53,261 nucleotides of DNA, taken from positions 1 to 53,261 of the IMG/VR virus record IMGVR_UViG_3300047457_000194, one strand, 5' to 3'. Below, piece after piece: positions 29,130 to 53,261 of the stretch. Made by a program: the position numbers and the translations under genes. Source of the stretch: a virus (taxonomy: Duplodnaviria > Caudoviricetes). The notes below the pieces were generated by a model. The model had not been told where the DNA came from, did no database searches, and saw nothing but the letters and a program-made list of their open reading frames with translations. The first letter of the stretch is position 1. The number at the start of each line of letters is the position of its first letter.

Positions 29130-32100
29130 ATGGCGCTTAAAACGATCTACCTAGAGGGCTTCGGCTTGATGGATGTTCCTGCTGAACTCACTGGCAAGGA
29201 ACTTTCAGTCTATGCCTCTAGGGAGGCTCGGAAGCGAAGGGCGGAAGAGTCTGCCGCTGAGGTAACCCAGCAAGCGCAGAAGAAGCCTGAGCCTTCCACC
29301 ATGCAGCAGGCTGCTGGCTTTGCTGCTGGTCTCCCTGCTGGCCTTGCCTCTGGGCTGATTGGGTCTACCCTTGAGGGCATTGGTGGCCTGACTGGCATCC
29401 GCCCGGTGGAAGAAGCTGGCGCTTCTTTCAACGAGTGGGTTCAGGAGAAGTTGAAGCAGGCAGTTGGCGAAGAAGCCGCTGCTTCTGGCGCGTCCCAGGT
29501 GGGTCAGACTATCGGCGGCATTGCTTCGTTCTTTACTCCTGGAGTTGCTGCCAAGGTGCTTGGTGGTGCTGGGAAGCTGGCTAAGGTCGCTCCCTATCTG
29601 AGTACCGCGATGTCCGGTATTCAGGGCGCTGGCGAACAAGTCGAGCGGATGCGGCAGCAGGAAGCCGAGGGTGATCAGATCGATCCCTTGATGCGCCAGT
29701 TGTATGCTGCTGGCGCGGGTGCCGGGACCGCGTTGCTGGAAAACATACCCATCAGCGGACTCGCCAAGTATACTCCGCTCAAGCGTGTGCTGGGTGATAT
29801 CCCAGTCTCCGCTGAGGCTGGTGCGTTTACGAGGGCGATGGATGCGGGTGCCGGGACTATCCTTGGACGGGCGCTTGGGACTGGCGCTGGCGAAGCTGCC
29901 ACTGAAGTAAGCCAGAACGCATTGCAGAACATCATCGAACGCCAGTACAACGAACAGCGCGGCATACTTGAAGGTAGCACTGAGTCTGCTGTGGGTGGAT
30001 TCCTTGCTGGCGCGGCGCTTCAGGGTGGCGCTGATCTGTACCGCGATGTCTACCTGAATAGGAAGAAGTTTGAGGGAGATGTCAAGGCGCTTCGAGGGCA
30101 GCTTTCCGAAGAGCAACTCCCACTCCTTCCGGCTGGAAAGAGAAAAGCGGTTCAGATTCGCGGAAAAGATATCTCCACAGTATTGGGAGAGGAGGATATC
30201 GCAGAGGCAGAAGCTGCTTTCTCTAAGGTCGCTTCTCCGCAAGGAGTCCCGCTCCTTCCTCCTGGCAAGTTTGCTTCTGATGAAGAGGCGCGGAGAAAGA
30301 TTGATGAAGAGATCGAGGCCGCAAAGGTATATGGCCCGACTCCAGACTTATCCTACGCTACACCTGAAGCAATGGCGCGTATCGAGGAGCTCAGGGCTAA
30401 GGAGCAAGCGGACAACGAAGCGATAATCAAGCAGCGTGAACAGGACATCGCTGCGCTGCCGGATTTCCCATCCTACCTTCCTGATCCAAACGTAACGCCG
30501 ATCAGCGAGTGGCCGAAGCCTCAAGTCAAATTGTTTGACCAGTACCTGAGCAAGTTCTCTCCAGAGCAGGCCAAGCTGATTGAGAGCTTCAGCCCTGAAG
30601 AGATGGATTCGTTTATTGAGCGAGGCGTGAAGCGCAAGACCGAATCCGAACAGCAACTGCAAAAGATCCGAGAAGAGCAGGCGGCTCGTATTGCTGCTTC
30701 CCGTAGGGCGGATATCGAGCAGGCTGATGCGATCACTCTCTCGCGGTTCGCAGAGGACTATCAAAAACAGGAAGCCGAAGCGGCTAGGGCAAAGCGCGAA
30801 GAGGAGCTATCTAAGGCCGCTGCCGGGAGGGCTGAAGAGGCTGCGATCAAAAACCTGTATGCGCGTGAGGAGTTCGACAAGTTCGTTGCCGACCGAATCG
30901 CAGCAAAGAGCAAGATCGAAGAAAGCCAGAGGGTTGCTGGTGAACTGGCGAAAACGAAGTTCGGTAAGCCCCTCGGTGAGTTGAAAGACTCTCAGAAGAT
31001 CCAACTCGCTAGTGAGATCGACGCAATCTCAAAGGAGGCTTCGTTCAGAACTGAAGTCAACAAAGAGATTCCAGAGCTTGGAGACCCCATCTACAAGCTG
31101 CAAAACCGGGTATCTGTAAACTTCTTCGGCACTCAGTACAAGAACCTCCCAGAAGCGAAGCAGGGGATAGTGAACTCTGCTATTGAACGAGGAGAAGGGA
31201 GAACCGTACTTGGCGAAGAGCTTCTGGAAGAGAGAGATTTTGACAAGTACAAGCGGCTCTATAATCGTGACGACTTCCGCGCCGTAAACAAAGAGATGCG
31301 CTCTTTCGTGCGAGACGAGAGTGGGTTTATCCCGGTCACAAAGGACTCCCTGTATTCCGCTGTTAAGTCTGTATCCGAAGACCCTACCAGTACTATCAAG
31401 CCAAATAGAATGGCATCAAACGCCATGTTCAAGCACATGCTTGATCGTGGTGTTATTGTGGACATTGACGGAAAGACCTACCTTAACGAGGAAGCGACTG
31501 GCCCCCGCTATCAGCTTCCTATAAGCAACAATCCAAACATCGAGAGCCAGCAGAGCGCCTTCAAAGCCGAGGAAGCGAAGGTCACGGTTGGTCCAAAAAT
31601 GAGGGATGCTCTTGAGCGGCGCGGACTGTCCGATGTGTTCACCCTGGGTATCGTTGAAAAGATCGAAGATACCCCTGCTCTTGGCAAGTACCTGAATCGC
31701 GTTATTCAGATCGCCGCCGCGCCTGAGGGGAAGGTCCGATCTCTCGACGAGATGATCTCCTCGATGGATCACGAGATCGTCCACGGCATGCGTGCCGCTG
31801 GGCTGTTCACGGACGCCGAGTGGAACCTGCTGACCACTGATTTCAACGCCAACCTGCTAGACGACAAGCAGAAGGAAGCGTACACGCGGATCTACAAAGC
31901 CCAGGGGATGAGCGACCAAGCCATCCAAGAGGCCTTGAACGAGGAAGCTGTCGCTATGAAAGCGGCGCAACTCAACAACGTGGACCCCAAGCGTTTGGAT
32001 CCGAAGTCCTTGTCGCTGATCAATAAGGTCCGCTTCTACCTGGAGTTCGGGCGCAACTCTGCTGCCCTTGGATACAACAGCGCCGAAGACGTGCTGGCTG

Positions 32101-35100
32101 CGATCAAGTCTGGCGAGATTGGCAAGCGTGGGTTTACTTCTGAGTTTGAGAAGGTGGGCGGGAAGGCCAAGCGTGTTGGACGCCAGGAGATCTCTATCGC
32201 CTCTGAGGCTGACAAGTCTTCCGGGGTTGAGACCAAGGTCTACGGAGAAGAGGATGAGGAAGGGGTAACGGACGAGAAGTACAAGCAGGCTCTGTCCGGG
32301 TTGGCCTCCAAGTTCGACCGCAAGACCCCGGTGAAGTCCCCTCGTCAGTACTTGATCCAGCAGATGGATGTCGCGCCGGAAGATGTTGATGCCCTGGTCA
32401 AGGGCATGATCAAGAATAAAGATCTTGTCAAAGTTGGCGGCGCTCTCTACATCTCCGATAGGGCTAGGCGGTCTATTGAAACTTCATCCGCCGAAAAATT
32501 GCCAGTCGATAAACCGAAATACGAAATCAAAGGCGAATACAGTCTGGAAGAAGACCCTCAGTTTTCATCCTATGTAAAGTTGGCGCTGGAAGGGCTGGAT
32601 ACCAAGCAGCTTGGGGCGCAAAGCTACTCCCTGTACAGGTCCATAAAGGACGGAAGCGCGCAGTTCGATATCCCTGAATCCTTCAAGGAGTCCCTCACTC
32701 CAAGTCTGGTCCGCTCTTCTGTGGACCGAATCCTTAGAATACCTGCGACTCGCCCTGGAGAGGTTCAGTCTAAGACCGCCGCGAAATCCAGATCGGCGTT
32801 GCTTGATAGAGATCAGCTAAACTCCGCGACCCCAGAGCAACGAGAGTCAATTATCTCTGACATCAATCGGTGGATAAATGCAAGGGGGAACTCGCTTTAT
32901 CACGCTGCCTTCCCTGACAACGCGATTGAAATCCTGCGTGGCGGTGGGATCAAATCTTTCGCCGGGGAGAAAGGCGTAAGCCTCTCTCGCGTGCCAAGCA
33001 TATTCACTGGGTTCTCTCAGTCTAGCAGGCCAGTGTCGTTTGTCATCGACTCAAAGTCCGTTCAGACCAAGCCGATAAACGAAGGCGTTTACACGGGCGT
33101 CGAGAGCTTGATCAATAGAGACGGAAGAACAACAAAGGAAATCAATAGCTGGCTATCCAAGTTGAAATCTGATGGATACTCCGTTCCCAGTGATTCTTCG
33201 TTTTTGTTTACTGGAAAGAATAAATACTCCATTTCAGAAGAAGGGTTCGTTCAGGCCATGTCTTCGCTTGGGGTTCCTGTTGAATCTTCTTCTCGCTTTA
33301 TCTCTGCCAGAAAGATCTTGGATCAGCCCAGAGAGCTAGCCTCAGCCAATCTCAAGAGGGTTCCTGGGCAGAAGGTTGACTTCGACGCCTCGTTTCAAAA
33401 AGCTGACTACTTGAATTTTGAGTTCGAGCAGCGCAGTAGGGGCAAGAGCGTTTACGATATCCCTTCATCCAGCATCATTGGCGTCATATACGATCCCAGG
33501 TACATGGACAAGAAGGAGATAAGCGCACTCAAAAAAGCAGCTACAGAGGCTGGAATTCCTGTGCGTGCGTATGAAACCAGCGAGGAGCTAGAGGAAGAGA
33601 GCAATATCTTTGGACCTGAAACAAGGTCTGGAAGGACGGTCAGTAGGGCTAGGGTGTCCGAAGTTCCAGCAGGGAAGCCGCTGTTTCAACTTCCACCCTC
33701 TGGTGCTGAAAGGGTTAAGGGAGACGCTCTCGTTAACCCAAGCGGAGCGTCACCCACCAAGCCATTCTTCACCAAGAAGTCTGCGAAGAACCCGCTGGAA
33801 GGAGCAAGTGACCTGATCAAGGGCAACTTCTCCTCGTTCCGGCAGAAGCTGATTGACCGCTATGACCCTGTCCGGTTGATGGCAATTGAGGCGTACTCCA
33901 AGACTGGCGACAAGAAGTACCTCAGCGCCGCTGAAGGTTCATACCACGCACTCCTGTTCTCCGATAAGGCACAGGACATGGCTCTTGCTGGGCTGGAGAA
34001 TGGAGGCTTCACGACTGAAGGAAGTATTATCCTCGCTGCCGACAACGAGAAGATCGCTCCACTGAAGATCTTCCAGTCACTGAGAGAGAAAGGCAAACTC
34101 GATGCCTTCTTCAATTTTGCGTACGCAAAGCGGTACAAGGCCCTGAAGGAGAACGGGAAAGACCCTGGCGGGGTGATCAGCGAAGCCGATGTCGAAAGGG
34201 AATACAAGCGGTGGGAGAACGACAACGACATCAACACTGCCATCGAAAACTTTAAGGCATACAATGACAACCTTGTGGACATGCTTCGCAAGAGTGGTTT
34301 CATCTCCGCAGGTGAGGCTAAGGCGTGGAAGTCTGCCTTCTACATTCCCTTCTACCGCATCCCGACCGTGATGGAAGGAGATGTGGATACGGGTGAGGTG
34401 GACATCCCGCGCCTCAGTTCGCAGATCACAAACCTCTCCAACCCCAAGGGGCTTACGGGGCGCGATCTCCCGGTCAATGACGCGATTGAGAACGTCATTG
34501 CCAACACCTATTACGTCATCGGCACCGCTGCCAAGAACTTCGCAGCTCGTAAGGTAGCGAGAGATGGTGTTATCACTGGATACATGAAGGAGATCGAGAA
34601 GCCTGGAGACGCGCAGCAGGGGTACAAGGTAATTACCGTCAGAGAAGGCGGCATCAAGAAGCATTACGAAGTAAAGGATGCTCTTCTGCATGACGCTGTA
34701 GCCAAGTCCGGGTTCCCTGTTCAGGACGTTCTGCGGGGTATGGGCTGGTTCACAGAGAAGCTGCGGCGCGGAACCACACTGTCGCCTACCTTCATCGTTC
34801 GCAACACTCTGCGTGACGCTATTCAGTCCTGGATCCTTGGTCAGTACGGAAGCACGTTCCTGCCTCCGTTCAAAGAGATCACCAAAGGAATCCAGATGGC
34901 GTACCAGAACTCTCCCGAGTTCAAGGCGCTGAAGTCTGCTGGCATCTCTAGCTCTGGGTTGCGGAAGAAGACCCTGCAAGAGACAGCTAAAGAGATGCGC
35001 CGTAAGATTGGCGAAGAGCAGCAGGGAGTTATTGCTCAACTTGGTGGGATCTTCAATAAGGGAATCGAGGTTCTTGAAAGAGGATCTGAGATCTCCGAAG

Positions 35101-36329
35101 CCAGCACGAGAACCAAGGTCTATCAGGATGTCCTGGCGAAGACTGGTGATCGCGCAGAGGCACTGTTCGCTGCCATGGAGACCATCAACTTCTCCAGGAA
35201 GGGTAGCTCCCGTGGCTTGCAGATTGGCATGGCTCTGCTTCCGTTCTTCAACGCCAGAATCCAGGGCATGGATGTCTTCTACCGCACGATGAAGGGCGAG
35301 AAGATGATGCCCAATCAGATGTCGGCTGACATGAAGGGCGCGGCAGTCACTCGCTTCATGTACTTCTCTGCCCTCTCCGCGCTCTACGCGCTGTACATGT
35401 CCAACCACCCCGCCTGGGAGAATGCCACCGACGAGGAGAAGGACGGGAATATCTTCCTTCCCGTGGACTTCATTCCCGGAATCAAAGAGGGGACGGTTCT
35501 CAAGTTCCCGATTCCGCAGGAGCTTGGCCTGATCGGCAAGATGCCTGCCGAGCGCATCGTCACCATGATCAAGGGGCGCTCTGACGGTGGTGACCTGATT
35601 GACTCCCTCCAGAGAGCGGTGTTCGATACCCTGTCGTTCAACCCAATTCCTCAGGTATTCCTTCCTGGGATCGAGGCGATTGCCAACTTCGACTTCTACT
35701 CCCAGAGGCCGATTGAGAATCAATATCTCGCCAGCCTGCTTCCAGAAGAACGATACACTGAGTACACCACTGGCGTAGCCAAGGCAATCGGCAGGGCAAC
35801 GGAAGACACTGCCGCCGCTGTATCACCTGTGATGGTGGATCATTTAATCAGGGGCTACTTCGGCACTCTCGGTGCCTACTCTGCCGACATTCTTGGCAGA
35901 CTCATAGAGGAAGGAAGCGATGCCCCCGCGCCGGAACGGATGCGCTTCTCTGAGCCGTACCTCCTCCCCGTCATCGGCCCCCTCTTCAAGTCTGCTGAAG
36001 GCAAGAAGATGGTCGAGGATCTGTACATGATCGACGAGGCTGCGAAGATGGCGGCGTCCACCCTCAAGGCATACTCTGAGAATGGGCGCGAACTATCTGA
36101 AGCCAAGGAAGACGAGCTTTACCAGCTTGCCGAGATTGGCGAGGAAGTCCGCCCGGTCATTGAGCAGATCCGCGAACTCAACCGACAGAAGCGTGCCATT
36201 CAAAGCGACACGGAGATGTCCTCCAGTGAAAAGAGAGACGAACTCAACGAGATCCAGAAAGAGATCGTCTCTCTTGCCGCCGAGGTGAACGACCTTAAGA
36301 AGCAGATTCCGATTCGCTTGCGGAAGTAG
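29130..36329 (+). CDS. Giant polyvalent virion protein (HExxH peptidase-like, ART-like and LPD38-like domains)
   Basis: 2399 aa; MDHEIVH..NEEAVA; C-terminal INFSRKG, PFFNARIQG, FPIPQELG, SPVMVDHLIRGYFGTLG as in LPD38-type domains. Confidence 0.8.
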   Translation: MALKTIYLEGFGLMDVPAELTGKELSVYASREARKRRAEESAAEVTQQAQKKPEPSTMQQAAGFAAGLPAGLASGLIGSTLEGIGGLTGIRPVEEAGASFNEWVQEKLKQAVGEEAAASGASQVGQTIGGIASFFTPGVAAKVLGGAGKLAKVAPYLSTAMSGIQGAGEQVERMRQQEAEGDQIDPLMRQLYAAGAGAGTALLENIPISGLAKYTPLKRVLGDIPVSAEAGAFTRAMDAGAGTILGRALGTGAGEAATEVSQNALQNIIERQYNEQRGILEGSTESAVGGFLAGAALQGGADLYRDVYLNRKKFEGDVKALRGQLSEEQLPLLPAGKRKAVQIRGKDISTVLGEEDIAEAEAAFSKVASPQGVPLLPPGKFASDEEARRKIDEEIEAAKVYGPTPDLSYATPEAMARIEELRAKEQADNEAIIKQREQDIAALPDFPSYLPDPNVTPISEWPKPQVKLFDQYLSKFSPEQAKLIESFSPEEMDSFIERGVKRKTESEQQLQKIREEQAARIAASRRADIEQADAITLSRFAEDYQKQEAEAARAKREEELSKAAAGRAEEAAIKNLYAREEFDKFVADRIAAKSKIEESQRVAGELAKTKFGKPLGELKDSQKIQLASEIDAISKEASFRTEVNKEIPELGDPIYKLQNRVSVNFFGTQYKNLPEAKQGIVNSAIERGEGRTVLGEELLEERDFDKYKRLYNRDDFRAVNKEMRSFVRDESGFIPVTKDSLYSAVKSVSEDPTSTIKPNRMASNAMFKHMLDRGVIVDIDGKTYLNEEATGPRYQLPISNNPNIESQQSAFKAEEAKVTVGPKMRDALERRGLSDVFTLGIVEKIEDTPALGKYLNRVIQIAAAPEGKVRSLDEMISSMDHEIVHGMRAAGLFTDAEWNLLTTDFNANLLDDKQKEAYTRIYKAQGMSDQAIQEALNEEAVAMKAAQLNNVDPKRLDPKSLSLINKVRFYLEFGRNSAALGYNSAEDVLAAIKSGEIGKRGFTSEFEKVGGKAKRVGRQEISIASEADKSSGVETKVYGEEDEEGVTDEKYKQALSGLASKFDRKTPVKSPRQYLIQQMDVAPEDVDALVKGMIKNKDLVKVGGALYISDRARRSIETSSAEKLPVDKPKYEIKGEYSLEEDPQFSSYVKLALEGLDTKQLGAQSYSLYRSIKDGSAQFDIPESFKESLTPSLVRSSVDRILRIPATRPGEVQSKTAAKSRSALLDRDQLNSATPEQRESIISDINRWINARGNSLYHAAFPDNAIEILRGGGIKSFAGEKGVSLSRVPSIFTGFSQSSRPVSFVIDSKSVQTKPINEGVYTGVESLINRDGRTTKEINSWLSKLKSDGYSVPSDSSFLFTGKNKYSISEEGFVQAMSSLGVPVESSSRFISARKILDQPRELASANLKRVPGQKVDFDASFQKADYLNFEFEQRSRGKSVYDIPSSSIIGVIYDPRYMDKKEISALKKAATEAGIPVRAYETSEELEEESNIFGPETRSGRTVSRARVSEVPAGKPLFQLPPSGAERVKGDALVNPSGASPTKPFFTKKSAKNPLEGASDLIKGNFSSFRQKLIDRYDPVRLMAIEAYSKTGDKKYLSAAEGSYHALLFSDKAQDMALAGLENGGFTTEGSIILAADNEKIAPLKIFQSLREKGKLDAFFNFAYAKRYKALKENGKDPGGVISEADVEREYKRWENDNDINTAIENFKAYNDNLVDMLRKSGFISAGEAKAWKSAFYIPFYRIPTVMEGDVDTGEVDIPRLSSQITNLSNPKGLTGRDLPVNDAIENVIANTYYVIGTAAKNFAARKVARDGVITGYMKEIEKPGDAQQGYKVITVREGGIKKHYEVKDALLHDAVAKSGFPVQDVLRGMGWFTEKLRRGTTLSPTFIVRNTLRDAIQSWILGQYGSTFLPPFKEITKGIQMAYQNSPEFKALKSAGISSSGLRKKTLQETAKEMRRKIGEEQQGVIAQLGGIFNKGIEVLERGSEISEASTRTKVYQDVLAKTGDRAEALFAAMETINFSRKGSSRGLQIGMALLPFFNARIQGMDVFYRTMKGEKMMPNQMSADMKGAAVTRFMYFSALSALYALYMSNHPAWENATDEEKDGNIFLPVDFIPGIKEGTVLKFPIPQELGLIGKMPAERIVTMIKGRSDGGDLIDSLQRAVFDTLSFNPIPQVFLPGIEAIANFDFYSQRPIENQYLASLLPEERYTEYTTGVAKAIGRATEDTAAAVSPVMVDHLIRGYFGTLGAYSADILGRLIEEGSDAPAPERMRFSEPYLLPVIGPLFKSAEGKKMVEDLYMIDEAAKMAASTLKAYSENGRELSEAKEDELYQLAEIGEEVRPVIEQIRELNRQKRAIQSDTEMSSSEKRDELNEIQKEIVSLAAEVNDLKKQIPIRLRK

Positions 36330-45893: not shown

Positions 45894-46772
45894 TTACGCG
45901 AACATGCCGCGCATCTGGTTGACGATCTGATTGGCTTCGTCGCTGATCTGTTGGGCGCAGTCGGCCACATCGATACGGGCGGCGTCATTCTCTCGCAGCA
46001 CTTCAGCGGTGTACTGGCAAAGCTGCTCGTCGATCCGGCGCGAGATGTCGGCCAGGCGGGAGTCGCCAGCGACATTCAGCTTCGGGAGTAAGCCAGCAAG
46101 TTCCACGGTGTTCTCTATCAGGGAGTCACGGAAAGAACCTTCGCGGGTTCCCGTATAGTTCTTTAACCGTTCTGCGACATGCTGCGTCTGCTTCTGGATG
46201 CGCTCGAAGAGATCGAGGACGGCGGCGTGGTAGTTGTTGGCGAGTCGCTGCTGCATCGACTCCTGCATCTGCCTCAGTACGTCCTTACTGAGCGACACGC
46301 GGAAGTCCTGCGAGTCAGGGACAGGCGAGAAGCTAACAGACCAGTCGAACTTCGACCGGATCTCGTGCATCGACGGGAACTCCGAAGGATCGAACAACCC
46401 GTTGAGTCGATAACGCGCCTCTTCGATTACGTCCGGGTAGTTCTGCACGAACTTGTCGAGTGCCGACTCGTGGATGGAGTGATACTTCTGCATGCCCTCC
46501 TGGTAGGCGACGAAGTTGGCGACAGGCAGGATGCGGATGCCCTCGGCATCCAGCCACGGCAACGTCTGCGCGTAGTGGAAGGACCGCGCCGCAGAGATGT
46601 TCGAGGACAGCTCCGTCAGATACTTCTTCGCGGCAAGCTGCTTGTTGAAGCGGCCCACTTCGCCGTTCGTGTTGTGGTTCTGTTCCACCTCGGCGGTGGC
46701 TTTCTTGTCGTACTTTCTGGCGGTCCACTGCGACACTGCGAAGCGGACGAGGACGGCTTTATCGTTAAGCAT
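45894..46772 (-). CDS. Conserved helical protein (DUF3150-like) of the AAA/VWA cluster
   Basis: Start MLNDK with RBS AGGAG; WTARK.D, TLPW, LF...EFP. Confidence 0.65.
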   Translation of the reverse strand: MLNDKAVLVRFAVSQWTARKYDKKATAEVEQNHNTNGEVGRFNKQLAAKKYLTELSSNISAARSFHYAQTLPWLDAEGIRILPVANFVAYQEGMQKYHSIHESALDKFVQNYPDVIEEARYRLNGLFDPSEFPSMHEIRSKFDWSVSFSPVPDSQDFRVSLSKDVLRQMQESMQQRLANNYHAAVLDLFERIQKQTQHVAERLKNYTGTREGSFRDSLIENTVELAGLLPKLNVAGDSRLADISRRIDEQLCQYTAEVLRENDAARIDVADCAQQISDEANQIVNQMRGMFA

Positions 46773-46807
46773 GATTGATCTCCTGAGATGTTGGTGTGTA
46801 TTGGTTT

Positions 46808-46822
46808 GTCCAAACTTTGGAC
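46808..46822. promoter_or_regulatory. Palindrome GTCCAAAnTTTGGAC copy 1
   Basis: GTCCAAACTTTGGAC, intergenic, upstream of the 46772 gene. Confidence 0.8.
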
Positions 46823-46870
46823 AGTTGGGATGTCTAGAAACTAGACACCCCTTGTCTGATAGAGCGCCGA

Positions 46871-47899
46871 TTAGAACATCAGCTTCGCGTAGGTGGGCTT
46901 GCTGATCATGTCGAGGATGGGCTTCGACGTGACGGCGGCAGTGTCGCGCTTGCACACATCCTTGAGGAACAAGCAGCCGTACTCCGGGGCCAGCCGCTGC
47001 ATGTAGGCGGCGATGGGCTTACTGTTCTGCGGGTTCCAGTTCGACGACAGGTAGATCGCCGTAGCGAAGGACGCCGACAGGTCGGTCGGGACAGCCACGC
47101 CACCAGGATCGGCGCAGATCGCGGAGATCTGGGGCAGCGACTGCCACATCCGCAGGAAGCCAAGGAACTCCAAGCCAGTGCCTTGCCCAATGCAACCCTG
47201 GATCATCTCGCCAGCGATCTCTCGGTCGGGGTCCTGGTCAAGGATGCGGGAGAGGAACTCGACAGAGCGAGGGGTGCAGAACGCGAAGTCATTCTTGTGC
47301 GGCTGCTGCACAAGCAGGTCCTTGCGGTAGGCGAAGAACGCCCGGAGTTCGGGGCGGATGGACTTGGTGATCGGCTTCGCAGGGACGACCTGCGCCGTCA
47401 CATTGCTGTCGCCAGCGGACGCCCACTCCAACCACGAGTCGAACGCCGACTCCAACTGGATGTGGAGGAAGCGGTTCATGAGCGGGGCCGGGGGCTGGTT
47501 GTAGTTGCCGCCGTCCTGGGCGCGATTGCCCGTGGCGCAGATGTACGCGCCGTCAGGCATCCGGTAGTCGCCAAGCTGCCGCTCCAGGACCAGCTGATAG
47601 AGGGCGCACTGCACCGACATCGGGGCGTCAGGCAGTTCCTCGATAGCGACGAGGGTCGCGCCGTTCTTGGGTAGCCAGTTCGGCGTGGCGCGGTAGCAGA
47701 CGCCGTCCTTGATATAGGGGATGCCCATATCCACCGGGTCCATCATCGTCGGGCGCACGTCAACGTGTTCCCGCTTGAGGATCGAGGCGACCTTGCGAAT
47801 GATCGAGGACTTGCCAATCCCGGCCTGCCCCCACACCCAGACGGGTACCTCGGCATTGATCGCGACCTGAAGCGCCTTCATGAAGTTCTGTGCGTACAT
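46871..47899 (-). CDS. MoxR/AAA_5-like AAA+ ATPase
   Basis: Walker A GQAGIGKS, variant Walker B VAIEE, ATGNR, PL.NRF, TPRS. Confidence 0.88.
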   Translation of the reverse strand: MYAQNFMKALQVAINAEVPVWVWGQAGIGKSSIIRKVASILKREHVDVRPTMMDPVDMGIPYIKDGVCYRATPNWLPKNGATLVAIEELPDAPMSVQCALYQLVLERQLGDYRMPDGAYICATGNRAQDGGNYNQPPAPLMNRFLHIQLESAFDSWLEWASAGDSNVTAQVVPAKPITKSIRPELRAFFAYRKDLLVQQPHKNDFAFCTPRSVEFLSRILDQDPDREIAGEMIQGCIGQGTGLEFLGFLRMWQSLPQISAICADPGGVAVPTDLSASFATAIYLSSNWNPQNSKPIAAYMQRLAPEYGCLFLKDVCKRDTAAVTSKPILDMISKPTYAKLMF

Positions 47900-47944
47900 C
47901 GTAGTCTCCTTGTGACTGGTTGGTGAATTGAACTACTAAGCACT

Positions 47945-47974
47945 ACTGTATGTAATCCAGTGTGCAATTGTCAA
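47945..47974 (-). promoter_or_regulatory. Sigma70-type promoter for the AAA cluster
   Basis: TTGACA-18 bp-TACAGT. Confidence 0.65.
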
Positions 47975-47976
47975 AT

Positions 47977-48324
47977 CTACTTCTTGTTTGGTTTGTTGGG
48001 GAACTGCGCCTTCTCGATGATCTCGTTGATCAGCGAGTCCCGGTCGTAGGGCTGGATGCCGTCATTCAGCGGCGAGTAGTGCCAGCACTTGTAGCTGGGC
48101 GCTTGCGCCATGAAGAACACCTTGTCTGTGTTGTGGTAGTGGCCCGAGATGTCCTTACGAGGCAGGATGTCGGACTCCACTTCGTTCAGGGAGACAAAGC
48201 ACTCCTCCTGGACCAGCTTCTCGCCGTCCTTCTCGACCTGCCCTGCGGCGGCGGACAGGTTGGTGAATCCATTGGCAAGCGCGACCGCATAGATCGCGCC
48301 GATAAATTGTTCAGGTGTAAGCAT
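47977..48324 (-). CDS. Hypothetical protein
   Basis: RBS AAGGAG, TAATG coupling, start MLTPEQF. Confidence 0.6.
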   Translation of the reverse strand: MLTPEQFIGAIYAVALANGFTNLSAAAGQVEKDGEKLVQEECFVSLNEVESDILPRKDISGHYHNTDKVFFMAQAPSYKCWHYSPLNDGIQPYDRDSLINEIIEKAQFPNKPNKK

Positions 48325-48521
48325 TAGCTCTCCTTGTCGTTTGGTAGCGGACACCATTCAGGGAAGGGTCCGAAGTCTTCGTCGGGGCGCTGTATCAAGC
48401 GCGGGTTGCTGGAGTGGGTGCATTCGGACAGCATGCCCAGTCCATTGGGGGCGCGGATGTGTGTCTCCCGATTGTGCGGACATCGCACACACGCGCCGAT
48501 CACTATCTCAACTCTCTTCAT
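48324..48521 (-). CDS. Small Cys-containing protein
   Basis: RBS GAGGTG; C..CP, C, FPEWCPL. Confidence 0.65.
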   Translation of the reverse strand: MKRVEIVIGACVRCPHNRETHIRAPNGLGMLSECTHSSNPRLIQRPDEDFGPFPEWCPLPNDKES

Positions 48522-48538
48522 CTCTCACCTCTCTCACC

Positions 48539-48658
48539 TCACGCTTTGAAAGCAGCGTAGATCACCACTGCGTACAGCAGCGCCCACGCAACGTATCCTA
48601 GCACATCTTTGATCGCAGTGTCGTACTGCGATAGCGTCTTGAACACCCTGCACTTCAT
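48539..48658 (-). CDS. 39-aa membrane peptide (not in ORF track)
   Basis: ATGA overlap; MKCRVFKTLSQYDTAIKDVLGYVAWALLYAVVIYAAFKA. Confidence 0.5.
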   Translation of the reverse strand: MKCRVFKTLSQYDTAIKDVLGYVAWALLYAVVIYAAFKA

Positions 48659-48966
48659 CGAATCACCTCGATATTGGCGGTGTCGATGCCGTTGATCGAC
48701 GCCCCGCTATACGAGGTCGGGTATCCGGTCTGCTCGTAGATAGAGGCGGCGTAGAACTCCACGGCTTTGCGTGGTCCGGTGATGATGAGGAGGCAGTAGT
48801 TGTCGTCATCGTCGTAGACGTATGCGGTGACCACATCCGTCTTCACAGGGACGCCAAACTCGGCGTCATCCATCAGCGTGGGCGCGATGTTGACGGCATC
48901 CCCGGTGGCGCGGATGATGTTGCTTTTGCTTTCGTAGGCAGCTTCGTTAGTGAACTTGAATTCCAT
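48655..48966 (-). CDS. Hypothetical acidic protein
   Basis: RBS AGGAGA; 103 aa. Confidence 0.65.
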   Translation of the reverse strand: MEFKFTNEAAYESKSNIIRATGDAVNIAPTLMDDAEFGVPVKTDVVTAYVYDDDDNYCLLIITGPRKAVEFYAASIYEQTGYPTSYSGASINGIDTANIEVIR

Positions 48967-49039
48967 GGTTTGTCTCCTGATTGGTTGTTTATTGTTAGGG
49001 TAGGCGCATAGCCTACCTGTTACACGGTCGATGCTGAAG

Positions 49040-49297
49040 CTAGCAGCCGCAGCACGGGTAATCTTCGCAGCGGCACGCTACACGGGCGATCATGCGCCCA
49101 TCCGCAGCGTACAATCCGCGAGGATCGCGCAGAGAGTTGTAGTACCCGGCAGGCTTGCGGCGAGGACGGTACGCGCCGTTGGTTTTGCACCCCAGGCAGA
49201 AGAGCCTGGAGTTGATGTAGTTGGCCTGCGTTCCGGCCTGGATTGTGGCCCCGCATGCGCGGCAGGGGGCGGTGTAGCGGACGTTAATGATTGCCAT
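49040..49297 (-). CDS. Small Cys-rich protein
   Basis: RBS AAGGAG; C..CG, C..C, CEDYPCCGC. Confidence 0.7.
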   Translation of the reverse strand: MAIINVRYTAPCRACGATIQAGTQANYINSRLFCLGCKTNGAYRPRRKPAGYYNSLRDPRGLYAADGRMIARVACRCEDYPCCGC

Positions 49298-49496
49298 GGT
49301 GTTCTCCTTTGTTCGCTATGACAATAAACACTACATCATGATGCAGTTTGAGCAGTGGAACGAGGCCGTCTGCCGATGTACCCCAATCGAGGCCATCTTT
49401 CCGCACTGGGGCCATCCTGTGATCCTTGGCTACGGTCGTGATGTTATTGCCGCACACCGCGCACCACACCTTGCAAATTTGGCTATGCATTGCCAT
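49284..49496 (-). CDS. Small hypothetical protein
   Basis: TAATG coupling; WCAVCG. Confidence 0.55.
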   Translation of the reverse strand: MAMHSQICKVWCAVCGNNITTVAKDHRMAPVRKDGLDWGTSADGLVPLLKLHHDVVFIVIANKGEHHGNH

Positions 49497-49747
49497 TACT
49501 TCACCTCCTGATAGACGTGGAGCGCCAGCTCCATCAGTTCTTTCTCTACTTCGCGCAGCTTCGCGACCCTGGCCCAGTGTTCAGACTGCGCGTTGTTGAT
49601 CGCGTCAGCGCCCTGTGGGTAGTAGTCTCGACCGTGCGGGGACGCCTTGCAGATCGCCTCCATAGCGCCACTCACGGCAGCATATGCTGAACGGTACTGT
49701 TTTAGCAGATAAGCGGCGGCGGTGTATTTCACGTTGATGATCGCCAT
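49496..49747 (-). CDS. Hypothetical protein
   Basis: TAATG coupling; PHGRDYYPQG motif. Confidence 0.65.
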   Translation of the reverse strand: MAIINVKYTAAAYLLKQYRSAYAAVSGAMEAICKASPHGRDYYPQGADAINNAQSEHWARVAKLREVEKELMELALHVYQEVK

Positions 49748-50067
49748 TACTGTCCCCCCTTCGCCTTGGCGATGATGGCGCGGGCGGCAGCCAATTCGTT
49801 ATCCCATACCTCCCCCGTGTAGCTGATGCTGGAGAGACAATTGGCGATTGCCTCCAGCGCCTCCAGCAACTCCGGCGCGGCAGCGATTAGACGGGCGTTT
49901 GCGTGTCCCGTGCCAATGCTCTCTGCCGTAGCGATACCGTGTGCATTGGTCGTTACGATATCGGCGACCGCTACGCCGCCGTTAACGGGTCCGACAGACA
50001 AGTCTCTGGTTTCGATGCCGGGGTCAGCCCATACTTCCCAGGGTCCTGGGGTGTGTGTGTTGTTCAT
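49747..50067 (-). CDS. Common phage early protein (HTPGPW...ANARLIAAAPELLEAL type)
   Basis: Recognisable motif; RBS AAGGAG. Confidence 0.75.
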   Translation of the reverse strand: MNNTHTPGPWEVWADPGIETRDLSVGPVNGGVAVADIVTTNAHGIATAESIGTGHANARLIAAAPELLEALEAIANCLSSISYTGEVWDNELAAARAIIAKAKGGQ

Positions 50068-50096
50068 TGTGTTCTCCTTTGTCTAGAATCTAGACA

Positions 50097-50111
50097 GTCC
50101 AAATTTTGGAC
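50097..50111. promoter_or_regulatory. Palindrome copy 2
   Basis: GTCCAAATTTTGGAC; abuts TGTCTAGAATCTAGACA at 50080-50096. Confidence 0.8.
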
Positions 50112-50135
50112 TGTTTTATTGGGGCAGGCTTGCGC

Positions 50136-50879
50136 CTACCCAATCGCGATGTTGATCAGCGGCGACTTCTTAGCGATAACGCTGTGATCCTGGATGACGA
50201 TATTCTTCCGGCGGTCGCCTTCACGAGTGCCGTCACACAGTTTGCAGTTGGCGCAAACCGTACGCTTTCCAGCTTCGGCACTGGCCGGGCAGGATATCTC
50301 ACCCGTCAGCTTGGTGTCGTTGCCCTTGGGAGACACCCGGAAGTAGCGCCAGCCCATGCGGACAGCCAGCATGGATTCCTGAGGCGAGTCACAGGATGCC
50401 ATGAAATACTGGCGCATCCATGACGGCGCCGTTTTCCATTGATGCGAGTACCCGGTGCGACCGCTAGCGACCGCACTGACGCCCTCGACTACATCGCGAT
50501 TGATAAACGCCGGATCACCGTACGCACCCCAGCGGACCATGCGACCGCCGAATAGGCTAGCGTACTCGCTAGCGTCAGCATGGCGATACCCGCCACGCAA
50601 GTAGCACTTCCAGATACCCGAAGCTGCCTTGCCCACCTGAACATAGCAGCGGCGACCGACCGCCTTCCCGTTCACAATCACCCCACGATGCGGACACTCC
50701 CCACAGATAGTGGAATCTAGCCCGTACCGGATCGCCATAAGCGGCGACTCATGACGGTACAGGATGTAAACCTGAATCATACCGCCCGTTTTGGAGTTGC
50801 TGGATTTGCTACGCAAGCCCGTAGCGATCACCACGATATCCGCAGATTCCTGCAGGATCACGCCGTTTGTGTTGTACAT
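50136..50879 (-). CDS. Cys-rich, radical-SAM-like/Fe-S candidate protein
   Basis: NSKTG, ICGECP..CYV, VRWGAYGDPA, GYSHQW, CPAS..C..C.LC. Confidence 0.55.
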   Translation of the reverse strand: MYNTNGVILQESADIVVIATGLRSKSSNSKTGGMIQVYILYRHESPLMAIRYGLDSTICGECPHRGVIVNGKAVGRRCYVQVGKAASGIWKCYLRGGYRHADASEYASLFGGRMVRWGAYGDPAFINRDVVEGVSAVASGRTGYSHQWKTAPSWMRQYFMASCDSPQESMLAVRMGWRYFRVSPKGNDTKLTGEISCPASAEAGKRTVCANCKLCDGTREGDRRKNIVIQDHSVIAKKSPLINIAIG

Positions 50880-50898
50880 CCCTCACTCACCTTTCGTA

Positions 50899-50913
50899 GT
50901 CCAAATTTTGGAC
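50899..50913. promoter_or_regulatory. Palindrome copy 3
   Basis: GTCCAAATTTTGGAC, 19 nt upstream of the 50879 start. Confidence 0.8.
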
Positions 50914-50966
50914 TGTTTTGGGTTGCCGCACGTCACTGACGGCAACGGTTAGCTACTGTGAATACC

Positions 50967-50996
50967 ATGATATCGTATCCACCTATCGTTTGTCAA
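50967..50996 (-). promoter_or_regulatory. Sigma70-type early promoter
   Basis: TTGACA-18 bp-TATCAT. Confidence 0.7.
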
Positions 50997-51110
50997 ATGG
51001 CACACGGAGTGCCATGGTATGCCACGACTACTGGTAGATGTGGGCAGCGATTACCAGCGCATAGATTGCGCCGAAACCTAGCACCGTGAGAATGGATTCA
51101 AAGCGCCGCA

Positions 51111-51416
51111 TTACCGCTCGCTTGGGTTTAAGAACGTGGAATCGTTCCTTCTCCCCTTGCTATCTGTGCCGGAGTTGCACAGGATTCTGGCAAGCGCCGT
51201 ATTGATATGGGAGTCATAGAGGTAAGGGTATAGCTCCTCGCAAACCCAATCCATACCCTTTTTCCCGCCCACATGGCACAATCGCAGTACCTCCCAATTG
51301 AAGCGCATGTCGGAGAATCCAGCCGCCTGATACCGTTCCCGCATGTTGGGGTGTTTGGCTAGAACATCAGCGCATGCGGATGCCAGTTTGAGGTAGTGGT
51401 CTTTTGTGATCTTCAT
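51111..51416 (-). CDS. Hypothetical protein
   Basis: RBS AGGAGA; MKITKDHY..., LYPYLYDSHINTAL. Confidence 0.7.
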   Translation of the reverse strand: MKITKDHYLKLASACADVLAKHPNMRERYQAAGFSDMRFNWEVLRLCHVGGKKGMDWVCEELYPYLYDSHINTALARILCNSGTDSKGRRNDSTFLNPSER

Positions 51417-51431
51417 TGTGTCTCCTGTTTT

Positions 51432-51446
51432 GTCCAAATTTTGGAC
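51432..51446. promoter_or_regulatory. Palindrome copy 4
   Basis: GTCCAAATTTTGGAC just upstream of the RBS of the 51416 gene. Confidence 0.8.
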
Positions 51447-51538
51447 TGTTTTCCCGTTGGCCGTGCGAACGCACGTTTCCAGCTACACCGCGTGGAGGTG
51501 GGAGTTGTAGCCATGGGGGGATTCGATCCCCCCGTTTC

Positions 51539-51772
51539 CTACGCCAGATAGCCGTAGGGATCGCCGCGATCTACCGCGCCCATATCTTCGAGCGCCTGAT
51601 GGTATCGCTCGAATTCCCGGTGGGCTTCGATGGCGCGTCGCTTGATAGCCAGCATGCGCGTCTCCCGTTCACTCCCTGACAGAGTGAAGGTGAAGTAATC
51701 GCCGCTACGGTTCACCTCAGCGTAGCGGGGACCGTTTTGGTCGCGACCTACAATCTTGATGCTGATTCTCAT
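51539..51772 (-). CDS. Hypothetical protein
   Basis: RBS GGGAGA; 77 aa. Confidence 0.6.
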   Translation of the reverse strand: MRISIKIVGRDQNGPRYAEVNRSGDYFTFTLSGSERETRMLAIKRRAIEAHREFERYHQALEDMGAVDRGDPYGYLA

Positions 51773-51798
51773 GGCTTGATTCTCCCTGTAGAGGGGGA

Positions 51799-52410
51799 TT
51801 ACTCCCCCATCATCTCCCGCATAATCGCGAGGAAGTCAGCTTCGTCCTTAGCCTTGCCGAGAGCGGTCTTATACTTCGTGCGCCAATCGGTGGCGGACTC
51901 GGTGGTGGTATCGTCGTTGGAGTCATCCTCCGGAGTAGAGTCCAAATTTTGGACCGATTCAACCTTGGGTTTGTCGAGGCCGAGGGCCGCTACCACCTCG
52001 TCGCGTACGCGAGCGTTATCAATCGTTCCCTTGGCGCGGCGGGTGATCAAGCTAGCGATTGTCTCTTTATTGACCTCAGCATCGCCCTTGGATTTGGCGA
52101 GCCGGGCAATCTCTTTGCAGCTGGAGTACCCACACTTGATGAGTTCTTCTTCCGTGGTGTTGATCCACAGAAGAGCGTTACCCAAGTTCGCCATATCGTG
52201 GAACTGGGATTTCGAGATGTTCACGTCCTGCGCATCCAAAAACGATTCGATGTTCTTGAAGCCGAGTGTTTTCCACTGCTTATGTGCCTTGATTTGGTAC
52301 AGCGCCGTCGACATGACAATGAAGAGGCGGTGAGATTCGCGACTGGCGCGGATGACGAGTTGCAGGTTTTCCTGCGCAGAGCGGGTGGCGGTGATGTTGA
52401 TTTTGTGCAT
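51799..52410 (-). CDS. First early gene; helical, putative DNA-binding protein
   Basis: RBS AAGGA; ALYQIK..KQWK.LGF..IESFL resembles DUF3102-like N-domains (inference); contains palindrome copy 5. Confidence 0.65.
   Translation of the reverse strand: MHKINITATRSAQENLQLVIRASRESHRLFIVMSTALYQIKAHKQWKTLGFKNIESFLDAQDVNISKSQFHDMANLGNALLWINTTEEELIKCGYSSCKEIARLAKSKGDAEVNKETIASLITRRAKGTIDNARVRDEVVAALGLDKPKVESVQNLDSTPEDDSNDDTTTESATDWRTKYKTALGKAKDEADFLAIMREMMGE
51940..51954. promoter_or_regulatory. Palindrome copy 5 (inside CDS, encodes VQNLD)
   Basis: GTCCAAATTTTGGAC. Confidence 0.75.
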
Positions 52411-52470
52411 GGTAGTTGATCCTTTACTTGGGTGGTGTTGTTCAGGTGCTTCAAAGCCCCTGAGTCAACT

Positions 52471-52500
52471 ATCCTAGCGAACGGTGAACACGGAGTGCAA
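52471..52500 (-). promoter_or_regulatory. Sigma70-type promoter heading the early arm
   Basis: TTGCAC-18 bp-TAGGAT. Confidence 0.6.
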
Positions 52501-52595
52501 CTATGCGAAACCGTGTGCTTTCAATGAGATGGAGATCATTAAGGAATTTTAATAAATGACTATTGTGAATGGAGTTTAATGTTGGTGGGTGGATT

Positions 52596-52610
52596 GTCCA
52601 AAGTTTGGAC
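52596..52610. promoter_or_regulatory. Palindrome copy 6
   Basis: GTCCAAAGTTTGGAC upstream of terS. Confidence 0.8.
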
Positions 52611-52626
52611 GGATGTTTGTGGGGAG

Positions 52627-52642
52627 TGTTCCACGTGGAACA
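52627..52642. promoter_or_regulatory. parS: Chromosomal-type parS site
   Basis: Perfect 16-bp palindrome TGTTCCACGTGGAACA matching the bacterial parS consensus. Confidence 0.85.
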
Positions 52643-52652
52643 CAATAGGGAT

Positions 52653-53228: not shown

Positions 53229-53261
53229 GCCGGGTCGCGCTGGCTGTGCTATGCATAGTAT

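Follow-up and report, generated by a model that had tools for sequence, protein, structure and literature searches.

Why does one 15-base palindrome stand, letter for letter the same, at successive gene starts of a phage's early arm, and what reads it there? The question is raised by the IMG/VR virus record IMGVR_UViG_3300047457_000194 (Duplodnaviria; Caudoviricetes), the whole of which, 53,261 bases, was analysed and is called the window here. The palindrome GTCCAAANTTTGGAC occurs in six exact copies starting at 46808, 50097, 50899, 51432, 51940 and 52596, i.e., between 46.8 and 52.6 kb, whereas 100 dinucleotide-preserving shuffles gave no match at all. A genome-wide motif scan allowing up to two mismatches found no further copy in the 53,261 bases, leaving the first 46 kb empty. 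The initial annotation of the sequence had reported these six positions and the empty 46 kb correctly. It proposed that the repeat is an operator for a dimeric phage protein, most simply the product of 51799..52410 (203 amino acids (aa), p203 hereafter), and named a private partition-like site array, RNA processing hairpins and cassette-exchange points as alternatives. It overlooked a sister palindrome, a predicted ribozyme resembling that of hepatitis delta virus (HDV), and the status of the window as an entire record, the two ends of which connect in frame at the terL start.

Copies 1 to 4 lie shortly upstream of leftward genes, as had been claimed, and end 32, 29, 19 and 15 nt before their ATGs at 46775, 50067, 50879 and 51416. 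The intergenic regions of the window are not short (92–230 nt), and the palindrome occupies their end next to the ribosome binding site (RBS). The upstream neighbour is not constant. Copies 2 and 3 follow GC-rich hairpins, copy 3 also has a sigma-70-like promoter about 45 nt ahead of it, and copy 4 follows a ribozyme. From the palindrome to the start codon the leaders are G-poor and CA-rich. Copy 1 (46808..46822, GTCCAAACTTTGGAC) is located in the gap that separates 45894..46775 from the MoxR-like ATPase gene, and a degenerate copy is found at its position in the related loci L139 and L141. On the transcript, copy 2 (50097..50111) has a GC-rich hairpin (GGGTAGGC...GCCTGCCC) ahead of it, and homology to the related locus L129 breaks at its edge. 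Copy 3 (50899..50913), which precedes 50136..50879, is in the leader downstream of the promoter TTGACA-18-TATCAT (50967..50996, minus strand; 11 of 12 consensus matches); a similar TTGACA...TACACT was seen by eye in L129. Copy 4 (51432..51446) begins 3 nt after the ribozyme. The identical extension of copies 2–4 was confirmed and reads ...GGACTGTTTT (TGTTTT) on the plus strand.

The other two copies are placed differently. Copy 5 (51940..51954) lies inside the p203 gene (51799..52410, minus strand), the first gene of the leftward early arm, where it reads VQNLD in an acidic linker; the linker noted initially is disordered in the AlphaFold model, with a predicted local distance difference test (pLDDT) score below 50 at residues 147–172. 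Copy 6 (52596..52610), in the divergent region between p203 and terS, is exact in the related locus L130 and one base different in L129. A parS-like palindrome follows it after 15 nt and the likely terS start (52653) after 42 nt, in agreement with the earlier description of a copy next to parS ahead of terS.

A sister palindrome, GTCTAGNNNCTAGAC (also written GTCTAGAWTCTAGAC), which is XbaI-like, stands beside copies 1 and 2 at 46832 and 50081, where 0.02 occurrences would be expected. The first (46832..46846, GTCTAGAAACTAGAC) has 6-bp arms and a 3-nt centre, is 9 nt from copy 1 and forms a hairpin in the predicted fold; the second (50081..50095, GTCTAGAATCTAGAC) is 1 nt from copy 2 and stops 13 nt ahead of the ATG of 49747..50067. 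Both palindromes have the same format, with the common consensus GTCYARANTYTRGAC.

The palindrome is not confined to this phage. An exact scan of IMG/VR with the 15-mer returned at least 124 stretches, most of them with a single copy, and the single matches are by estimate near the chance number. Among the matches listed, 11 contigs carry two or more copies; five of these (G001–G005) hold 9, 4, 6, 12 and 5 copies with one mismatch allowed, compared with 0 for a reversed control pattern. The five contigs are unrelated, with G+C contents from 40% to 61% and a gene content different from that of the window, to which only two weak BLASTP matches were found. In these contigs the sites again stand just before Shine–Dalgarno sequences. 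Most of the unrelated carrier records are fragments (8–45% complete). The sister palindrome was found in 109 stretches and a related 16-mer, TGTCCAAATTTGGACA, in 53, both in multiple copies in many contigs. In 596 billion bases of bacterial genomes, the palindrome followed by GGAG within 8 nt occurs in 77 stretches, about the chance number by estimate, and a universal bacterial regulon was rejected: there are only local clusters of 2–4 copies, in five genomes. These clusters include Acidobacteriota contigs with G001-related genes and a Caldilineaceae locus near a capsid gene, and the carrier prophage-like regions span several phyla. The idea of a private site array is thus improbable, since the identical 15-mer is present in multiple copies in unrelated phage contigs and prophage-like regions; as far as its distribution tells, the palindrome is probably a shared control site. 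No publication naming it was found: a literature search with the motif letters gave primer noise, and the literature listing for the Pelagibacter phage HTVC023P held nothing on repeats. Two gene neighbours were recorded near palindrome pairs, namely a reverse-transcriptase gene about 0.8 kb away in an Acidobacteriota genome (L232, 1035–2357, minus strand) and an adjoining XRE-type helix-turn-helix gene in another locus (L233, 3067–3333).

The tie to gene starts holds beyond the window. A Shine–Dalgarno motif and then a start codon come 0–9 nt after 25 of the 52 exact sites in ten phage records, compared with 5–9% of random positions; the same adjacency is seen for 39 of 121 sister-palindrome sites and 18 of 58 16-mer sites. 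Sites without a following RBS occur in divergent control regions, such as copy 6 of the window, 12657 and 12886 of G004, and the Caldilineaceae prophage-like locus, where the site lies between divergent small open reading frames (ORFs). Copies inside genes always lie in the frame that reads VQxLD or VQxSD, within linkers that are acidic and of low complexity. The four proteins concerned, among which no similarity was detected, are p203, P0059 (the first leftward gene beside the G004 control region), and P0060 and P0061, both of G001. Homology between p203 and the others was rejected at hhalign probabilities of 0.5% (P0059) and 0.1% (P0060 family), and a ribbon-helix-helix C-terminus of P0060, suspected by eye, had no Pfam support. 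The P0060 family, at 29% overall identity, retains VQILDS together with the exact palindrome. Because the codons are fixed, selection acts on the nucleotides of the in-gene copies and not on the peptide alone. The analysis shows a real element under selection, with a dyad symmetry that runs through the centre, a tie to gene starts and an occurrence in unrelated phages.

Conservation in relatives was assessed in 11 related loci gathered by searches with p203 and the MoxR-like ATPase, where the same kind of element exists in lineage-specific versions. In L129 and L130, whose p203 proteins are 81% and 71% identical to that of the window, the same 15-mer stands at homologous places, upstream and internal ones among them, together with the sister palindrome; the internal copy reads VQTLD in L130, and L129 has one-base variants. 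In L140 and L141 (p203 about 38% identical) the sister palindrome predominates. L142, L143 and L144 carry the perfect 16-mer, which has the same half-site as the 15-mer and no centre base, while L145 has seven copies of AGTCTCANNNTGAGACT with a freely varying 3-nt centre, and L238 has GTCCA-AATC-TGGAC and GTCCA-AAAT-TGGAC. The outer GTC...GAC is kept in the versions of all the relatives, and they form a family of GTC...GAC dyads with one version per lineage; in the 15-mer only the single centre base varies. The same leader, AGAAAGAGTGAGAG, is found behind either palindrome type. Single-arm variants recur as well: GTACAAACTTTGGAC four times in G004, ...TTTGGAG four times in G003 and ...TTCGGAC twice in G001. 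From a reading of the site lists, most of these variants break the pairing of the sense RNA and few are wobble-compatible. In L247, the IMG/VR contig of G016, the sister palindrome with a C centre amounts to two tandem TCTAGAC heptamers and can thus also be read as a direct repeat; one locus has four in a row.

Predicted self-cleaving ribozymes stand beside the sites of this lineage. An Rfam scan of 2.8 kb of the arm matched the minus strand at 51450–51511 to an HDV-like ribozyme (RF02682) with 35.1 bits and an E value of 3.8e-4, together with a second, weaker HDV-family match. The predicted element, 51450..51512, is separated by 3 nt from copy 4, which follows it. The same element precedes a palindrome in L129 (1420–1481, 38.8 bits) and L238 (1038–1102, 34.2 bits); none of the three reaches the RF02682 gathering score of 44. 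All 19 pairs of the P1–P4 nested double pseudoknot form in all three sequences, with 4 pairs changed on both sides (compensatory changes in P1 and P2), and 94.7% of alignment cells pair in the whole structure compared with 31–48% in slid controls, in a comparison of three sequences only whose structure was drawn from the window sequence. Cleavage is predicted 5′ of G51512 (± 1 nt), which starts P1 with a G–U pair. Directly upstream of this site, reading of the sequence shows a GC hairpin, GGGGGG-AUCGAAU-CCCCCC (51515..51533, minus strand), whose AUCGAAU loop resembles a T-loop. After the predicted cleavage, this hairpin would form the end of the upstream fragment; in L238 a palindrome takes the place before the cleavage site.

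A second ribozyme class was found in other relatives. Type II hammerheads (RF02276, gathering score 37) were matched in L130 (1698–1763, 36.3 bits), L140 (3241–3306, 37.6 bits) and L141 (3964–4029, 31.5 bits), of which only L140 meets the threshold, L130 and L141 being just under; the core CUGANGA...GAAA...GUC is seen in the alignments. Each is followed immediately by the sister palindrome or a one-base variant of it, and by eye hammerhead cores also adjoin the 16-mer in L357 and L365. The HDV-like ribozyme of the window and the type II hammerheads of L130, L140 and L141, two unrelated classes, occupy one slot after the first early gene(s), so that one class has replaced the other at one genomic position. 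Rfam found no ribozyme beside the sites in G001, G002, G004, L139, L142, L143, L144 and L145. Hammerheads have been reported to flank single prophage genes and, in one halovirus case, to precede an early start codon by 13 nt; they are proposed to divide long phage transcripts into mRNAs the length of a gene (PMC3088659).

Which molecule, then, is read at these sites? The dimer operator remains the best single reading of the elements, one that we favour tentatively and would not call probable: a dimer with sequence specificity would use each palindrome much like an operator, and would gate the early cistrons one by one from a position just ahead of the RBS. The palindrome, with its sister, would be a portable 15-bp gene-start dyad at the downstream end of early intergenic leaders, 2–7 nt before the Shine–Dalgarno sequence, placed after whichever of a promoter, a self-cleaving ribozyme or a GC hairpin stands upstream. 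Most likely a symmetric dimer would read double-stranded DNA and, once bound, would stop or exclude RNA polymerase just before each RBS, gating each early cistron alike under local initiation or upstream read-through. Initiation would be the step affected by copy 6, in the divergent p203/terS region; copy 5, within the p203 gene, would affect that gene together with all that lies downstream. A roadblock just before each RBS would account for the position, and intergenic packing for the closeness to the ribozyme. As the main alternative, the palindrome could act as an RNA leader hairpin with a 6-bp stem and a 3-nt loop. It would separate the Shine–Dalgarno sequence from the RNA structure upstream, be that a long leader, a hairpin of terminator type or the remnant of a ribozyme, and keep the RBS free of its upstream context; a hairpin-recognising factor may also control translation or decay. 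We consider the hairpin reading possible, if on the whole unlikely. The RNA-processing idea of the initial annotation did gain evidence, because predicted self-cleaving ribozymes of two classes abut the palindromes. For the leader hairpin, the minimum-energy folds of all 6 contexts examined (6 of 6) contain the stem-loop, and paired arm changes between palindrome types keep complementarity while the centres vary in sequence and length. The synthetic insulator RiboJ joins a ribozyme to a 23-nt hairpin that is credited with making the RBS more accessible (PMC6206723). However, folding z-scores are unremarkable in 4 of the 6 contexts, G007 has the same leaders without a palindrome, and Rfam found no ribozyme beside the sites of the carriers named above. 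A hairpin loop needs at least three unpaired bases, so the conservation of the symmetric inner bases has a reason other than the hairpin: A7/T9 of the 15-mer and the AATT centre of the 16-mer are unpairable and yet as conserved as the stem. Operators usually combine one consensus with one weaker half-site, and the single-arm variants, including 4 of 5 Shine–Dalgarno-adjacent copies in G004, mostly break the stem. Structure alone also leaves unexplained the identical stems in unrelated phages (40–64% G+C) and the exact copies in coding linkers and divergent control regions. Symmetry extending into unpairable bases, stem-breaking one-arm variants, control-region and in-gene copies, and one sequence across very different genomes all speak for a DNA site. 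We infer that DNA rather than RNA is read and that the effect would be repression, with a binder that can be proposed only as a candidate. Several observations weigh against the operator reading and can be gathered here. The tie to gene starts itself points to RNA, and the palindrome lies within about 4 nt after all 6 Rfam ribozyme matches of the lineage. Between GTCCA and TGGAC there are 5 nt in the window but 4 nt in L142–L144 and L238; this difference, the asymmetric centres of L238 (AATC, AAAT) and the free centre of L145 are easier to accommodate in a hairpin. The two palindrome types swap at homologous positions, substituting for each other, and also stand in tandem.

Two further explanations concern neither a repressor nor a leader structure. 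The repeats could mainly be recombination linkers, i.e., identical stretches of 15–21 bp serving as micro-homology for cassette swaps, possibly used by Erf and the exonuclease, with regulation secondary; we regard this as improbable, although the cassette-exchange idea of the initial annotation gained evidence, too. Several breakpoints between the window and its relatives fall within 0–6 nt of a palindrome: L129 homology ends at base 3166, at the edge of copy 2, and L139 and L141 homology begins 3 nt past the sister palindrome. The leader shared behind either palindrome type fits as well, the window does encode Erf and a PD-(D/E)XK exonuclease, and in Cluster O phages a gene is described as flanked by a 17-bp direct repeat (PMC4351075). 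Because an extra L129 gene lies between two copies, the repeats act, at least in effect, as cassette joints. However, any cassette mosaic would break near sites at gene starts, recombination needs identity and not dyad symmetry, and the in-gene copies and the fixed Shine–Dalgarno distance are left unexplained. Very improbable, in turn, is the reading as promoters for a special polymerase or sigma factor, in the manner of the hairpins used by the N4 virion RNA polymerase, or as terminators of antisense rightward transcription. The 6-bp stem, 3-nt loop and short start distance do resemble those of N4 early promoters, the GC hairpins before several sites give a terminator-then-promoter look, and the three copies with TGTTTT on the plus strand were called terminator-like. 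However, a perfect palindrome has no direction, a good sigma-70-like promoter stands upstream of copy 3, and no RNA polymerase was found in the window, whose 2399-aa ORF matches only LPD38 and ART-PolyVal, i.e., a polyvalent protein, although several large ORFs have no family; N4-like promoters with a giant virion RNA polymerase were rejected on this basis. For terminators, the T-run follows only three copies, on the plus strand and antisense to the genes, and is absent in other lineages, and a terminator scan gave 7 sites compared with 6.7 in shuffles.

If the operator reading is taken further, the next question is what would bind. The initial annotation chose p203, and in this lineage p203 is still the best candidate, although a doubtful one. 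Its family, an orphan one without a name, comprises 58 members, all from metagenomes. No Pfam family was matched at E ≤ 0.01 and hence no ParB N-terminal domain, which binds cytidine triphosphate (CTP); a profile of 8 homologues found no solved relative by sequence, tblastn found no match in the GenBank phage collection, and scans for more distant contexts gave one 1.2-kb contig only. The AlphaFold model (pLDDT 81) has SopB–DNA as its top Foldseek match, a weak one (E 0.56, probability 0.75), and VIA-align Z scores of 6.1 to ParB–parS, 5.0 to Spo0J, 4.3 to SopB and 4.3 to KorB, all within the noise range for helical models; the Noc DNA-binding domain is also among the weak matches. KorB with its OB sites in IncP plasmids, and ParB with parS, are systems in which a ParB-type helix-turn-helix protein acts on a short palindrome at a dozen dispersed places, near promoters, far from them or in genes. 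The weak matches to the KorB, ParB, SopB and Noc DNA-binding domains would fit such a system, but unlike ParB, p203 lacks the N-terminal domain by Pfam, and its structural Z scores of 4.3–6.1 are at noise level.

Genetic linkage gives p203 more credit. It is present in 9 of 9 loci of the lineage that have both arrays and a p203 region, namely the window, L129, L130, L140, L141, L142, L144 and L145 by profile matches and L238 by a homologue, whereas G007, without p203, has one degenerate copy only and no array. Three of three further 16-mer-rich contigs also carry p203, flanked by sites. The initial annotation suggested a check of whether homologues of p203 carry internal palindromes that co-vary with the intergenic repeat of each genome. 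The gene carries or adjoins a copy in 4 of 5 subgroups, with a site in the promoter-to-gene stretch and no internal copy in subgroups B and D and the reverse in subgroup A. The internal motif is found in only 7 of 58 family members, all at least 71% identical and closest to the window. The points on the binder that tell against the operator reading begin with the most divergent p203 subgroup (26% identity), which has the most different helix-turn-helix region and keeps the same half-site, GTCCAAA; the site type does not track the putative recognition helix cleanly. In addition, p203 is absent from G001–G005, from seven bacterial loci and from 7 of 7 sister-rich contigs (one of them 94% complete), so that the 15-mer and its sister are multi-copy without p203, and no protein common to all carriers was found, most of the records being fragments. 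The complete genome G006 likewise keeps 4 sites without p203, a weak point since it is 98.7–99.6% identical to the p203-bearing L144 there and, judging from that identity, is a recent recombinant. For the phages with the site and without p203, a host factor or another exchangeable regulator would be needed.

Dispersed palindromes at gene starts are a kind of element that is already known and unexplained. Cluster O mycobacteriophages carry a 17-bp palindrome, 5′-TGTTCGGNNNCCGAACA, with invariant 7-bp inverted arms and a short variable centre; each genome has over 30 copies, which are either intergenic or placed towards the ends of ORFs, within them, and the part of that report concerned with the repeat assigns it no function (PMC4351075). 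The inverted arms, the variable centre and the mix of intergenic and in-ORF copies are shared with the window palindrome, whereas the sequence, the host phylum (these being actinophages) and the genome-wide spread of the Cluster O repeat are different. The same part of the report mentions no ribozymes beside the repeat and no occurrence outside its cluster, while the window 15-mer recurs in unrelated phages. In Cluster K, start-associated sequences (SAS) and their extended form (ESAS) lie in the non-structural half of the genome, a few bases before the starts of genes from different families; about half of the SAS have imperfect 17-bp inverted repeats just upstream, and the text describing them leaves open whether a host or a phage protein binds (PMC3203893). 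The restricted region and the closeness to start codons are alike, but the SAS is asymmetric and contains the Shine–Dalgarno core, whereas the window dyad is separate and upstream of it. These actinophage palindromes were described more than 10 years ago, and neither report, in the portions dealing with them, gives a function. A mechanism of the type proposed for the window dyads is provided by the stoperators of Cluster A, many dispersed repressor sites where elongation terminates and genes are silenced stretch by stretch, according to the relevant part of the source (PMC9283540). For the ribozymes, the order of ribozyme, short hairpin, RBS and gene is that of RiboJ as presented (PMC6206723); however, RiboJ is engineered with an arbitrary hairpin sequence, and the account of natural prophage ribozymes has, in the part covering them, no conserved palindrome after the ribozyme (PMC3088659). 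Unlike in either, two ribozyme classes here share a slot after the first early gene(s).

What is new here is the adjacency to HDV-like and hammerhead ribozymes and the recurrence of the identical 15-mer in unrelated phages; this spread and the ribozyme pairing are the most interesting aspects of the element. A broader proposal, more speculative than either the operator or the hairpin taken singly, is that the GTC...GAC dyads (the 15-mer, its XbaI-like sister and the 16-mer) could be a gene-start code of many unrelated uncultured freshwater and soil phages and of prophages across phyla, read by a common phage or host factor. In this lineage the dyads would be joined with interchangeable ribozymes into ribozyme–dyad–RBS cassettes that make early genes context-independent and exchangeable; if so, these cassettes would be the natural counterpart of engineered insulators. 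With the identical site in phages without common genes, the search for the binder is reduced to host factors and exchangeable modules, and a lineage is available in which site type, spacing and candidate binder all vary. The juxtaposition with two ribozyme classes ties the sites to mRNA processing, as a natural analogue of ribozyme–hairpin insulators, and the palindrome offers a simple annotation marker for early-gene cassettes in uncultured phage genomes.

Two further elements flank the divergent region of copy 6. The likely p203 promoter, TTGCAC-18-TAGGAT (52471..52500, minus strand), was identified by eye and not called by the consensus promoter scan; its TAGGAT box and spacing are conserved in L129, L130, L140 and L141. 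The parS-like element GTGTTCCACGTGGAACAC (52626..52643), a perfect palindrome of 18 bp located 9 nt before the likely terS start, is a separate element. It differs at 2 symmetric positions from the chromosomal parS consensus. GTTCCAC motifs occur in 5 of 8 p203-bearing loci; L130, L140, L141 and L145 arrange them differently, and L145 has TTTTCCACAG direct repeats as well. A host parS was rejected, since the motifs vary with phage lineage and are rearranged in L145, indicating a phage element that is not the partner of the palindrome; its role may be that of a pac site, a terS site or a p203 site.

Long non-coding leaders of 330–1200 nt run from the terS-side promoter to the first early gene in three relatives: L143, which corresponds to G006 (about 2000–3260), L140 (1830–2290) and L145 (1850–2190). 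They may represent RNAs of a kind not known before. The long leader of G006 holds three copies of a motif of about 30 nt (...CTCAGGGCTGATAAACGTAAGCCGA...). Rfam gave one sub-threshold small RNA match on these leaders, BjrC68 in L143, at 27.4 bits against a gathering score of 39.

The window is the whole IMG/VR record, listed with a CheckV completeness of 87%. An ATG formed by positions 53260–53261 and base 1 opens the terL ORF when the ends are joined (53250–53261 joined to 1–1516); judging from this in-frame join at the terL start, the record, described as linear and 87% complete, is probably complete and circularly permuted. The left 36 kb contains the terminase, portal and virion genes and the 2399-aa ORF (29130–36329, plus strand), which has an LPD38 domain and is of the large polyvalent protein kind; its nearest Atlas cluster carries ART-PolyVal, and no solved relative was found by sequence. 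G003 holds an ORF of 3828 aa. The right arm, mostly on the minus strand, encodes a lysis peptidase, dUTPase, a small tyrosine recombinase, Erf, the exonuclease, a primase-helicase (plus strand), a DUF2201/VWA protein and the MoxR-like ATPase, followed by small orphan genes up to p203. No near-identical DNA was found in the GenBank phage collection, and the nearest cultured terminases, about 55% identical, are those of phage 023Pt_psg01, the Pelagibacter phages HTVC027P and HTVC023P, and phage DSL-LC04. The sequencing runs that contain the stretch are DNA runs labelled as freshwater and estuary metagenomes, with no RNA run among those listed. Finally, a 27-codon ORF (51024–51107, minus strand), located between a 101-aa gene and the promoter ahead of copy 3, encodes the hydrophobic peptide MRRFESILTVLGFGAIYALVIAAHIYQ and is conserved in L129 (2122–2205).

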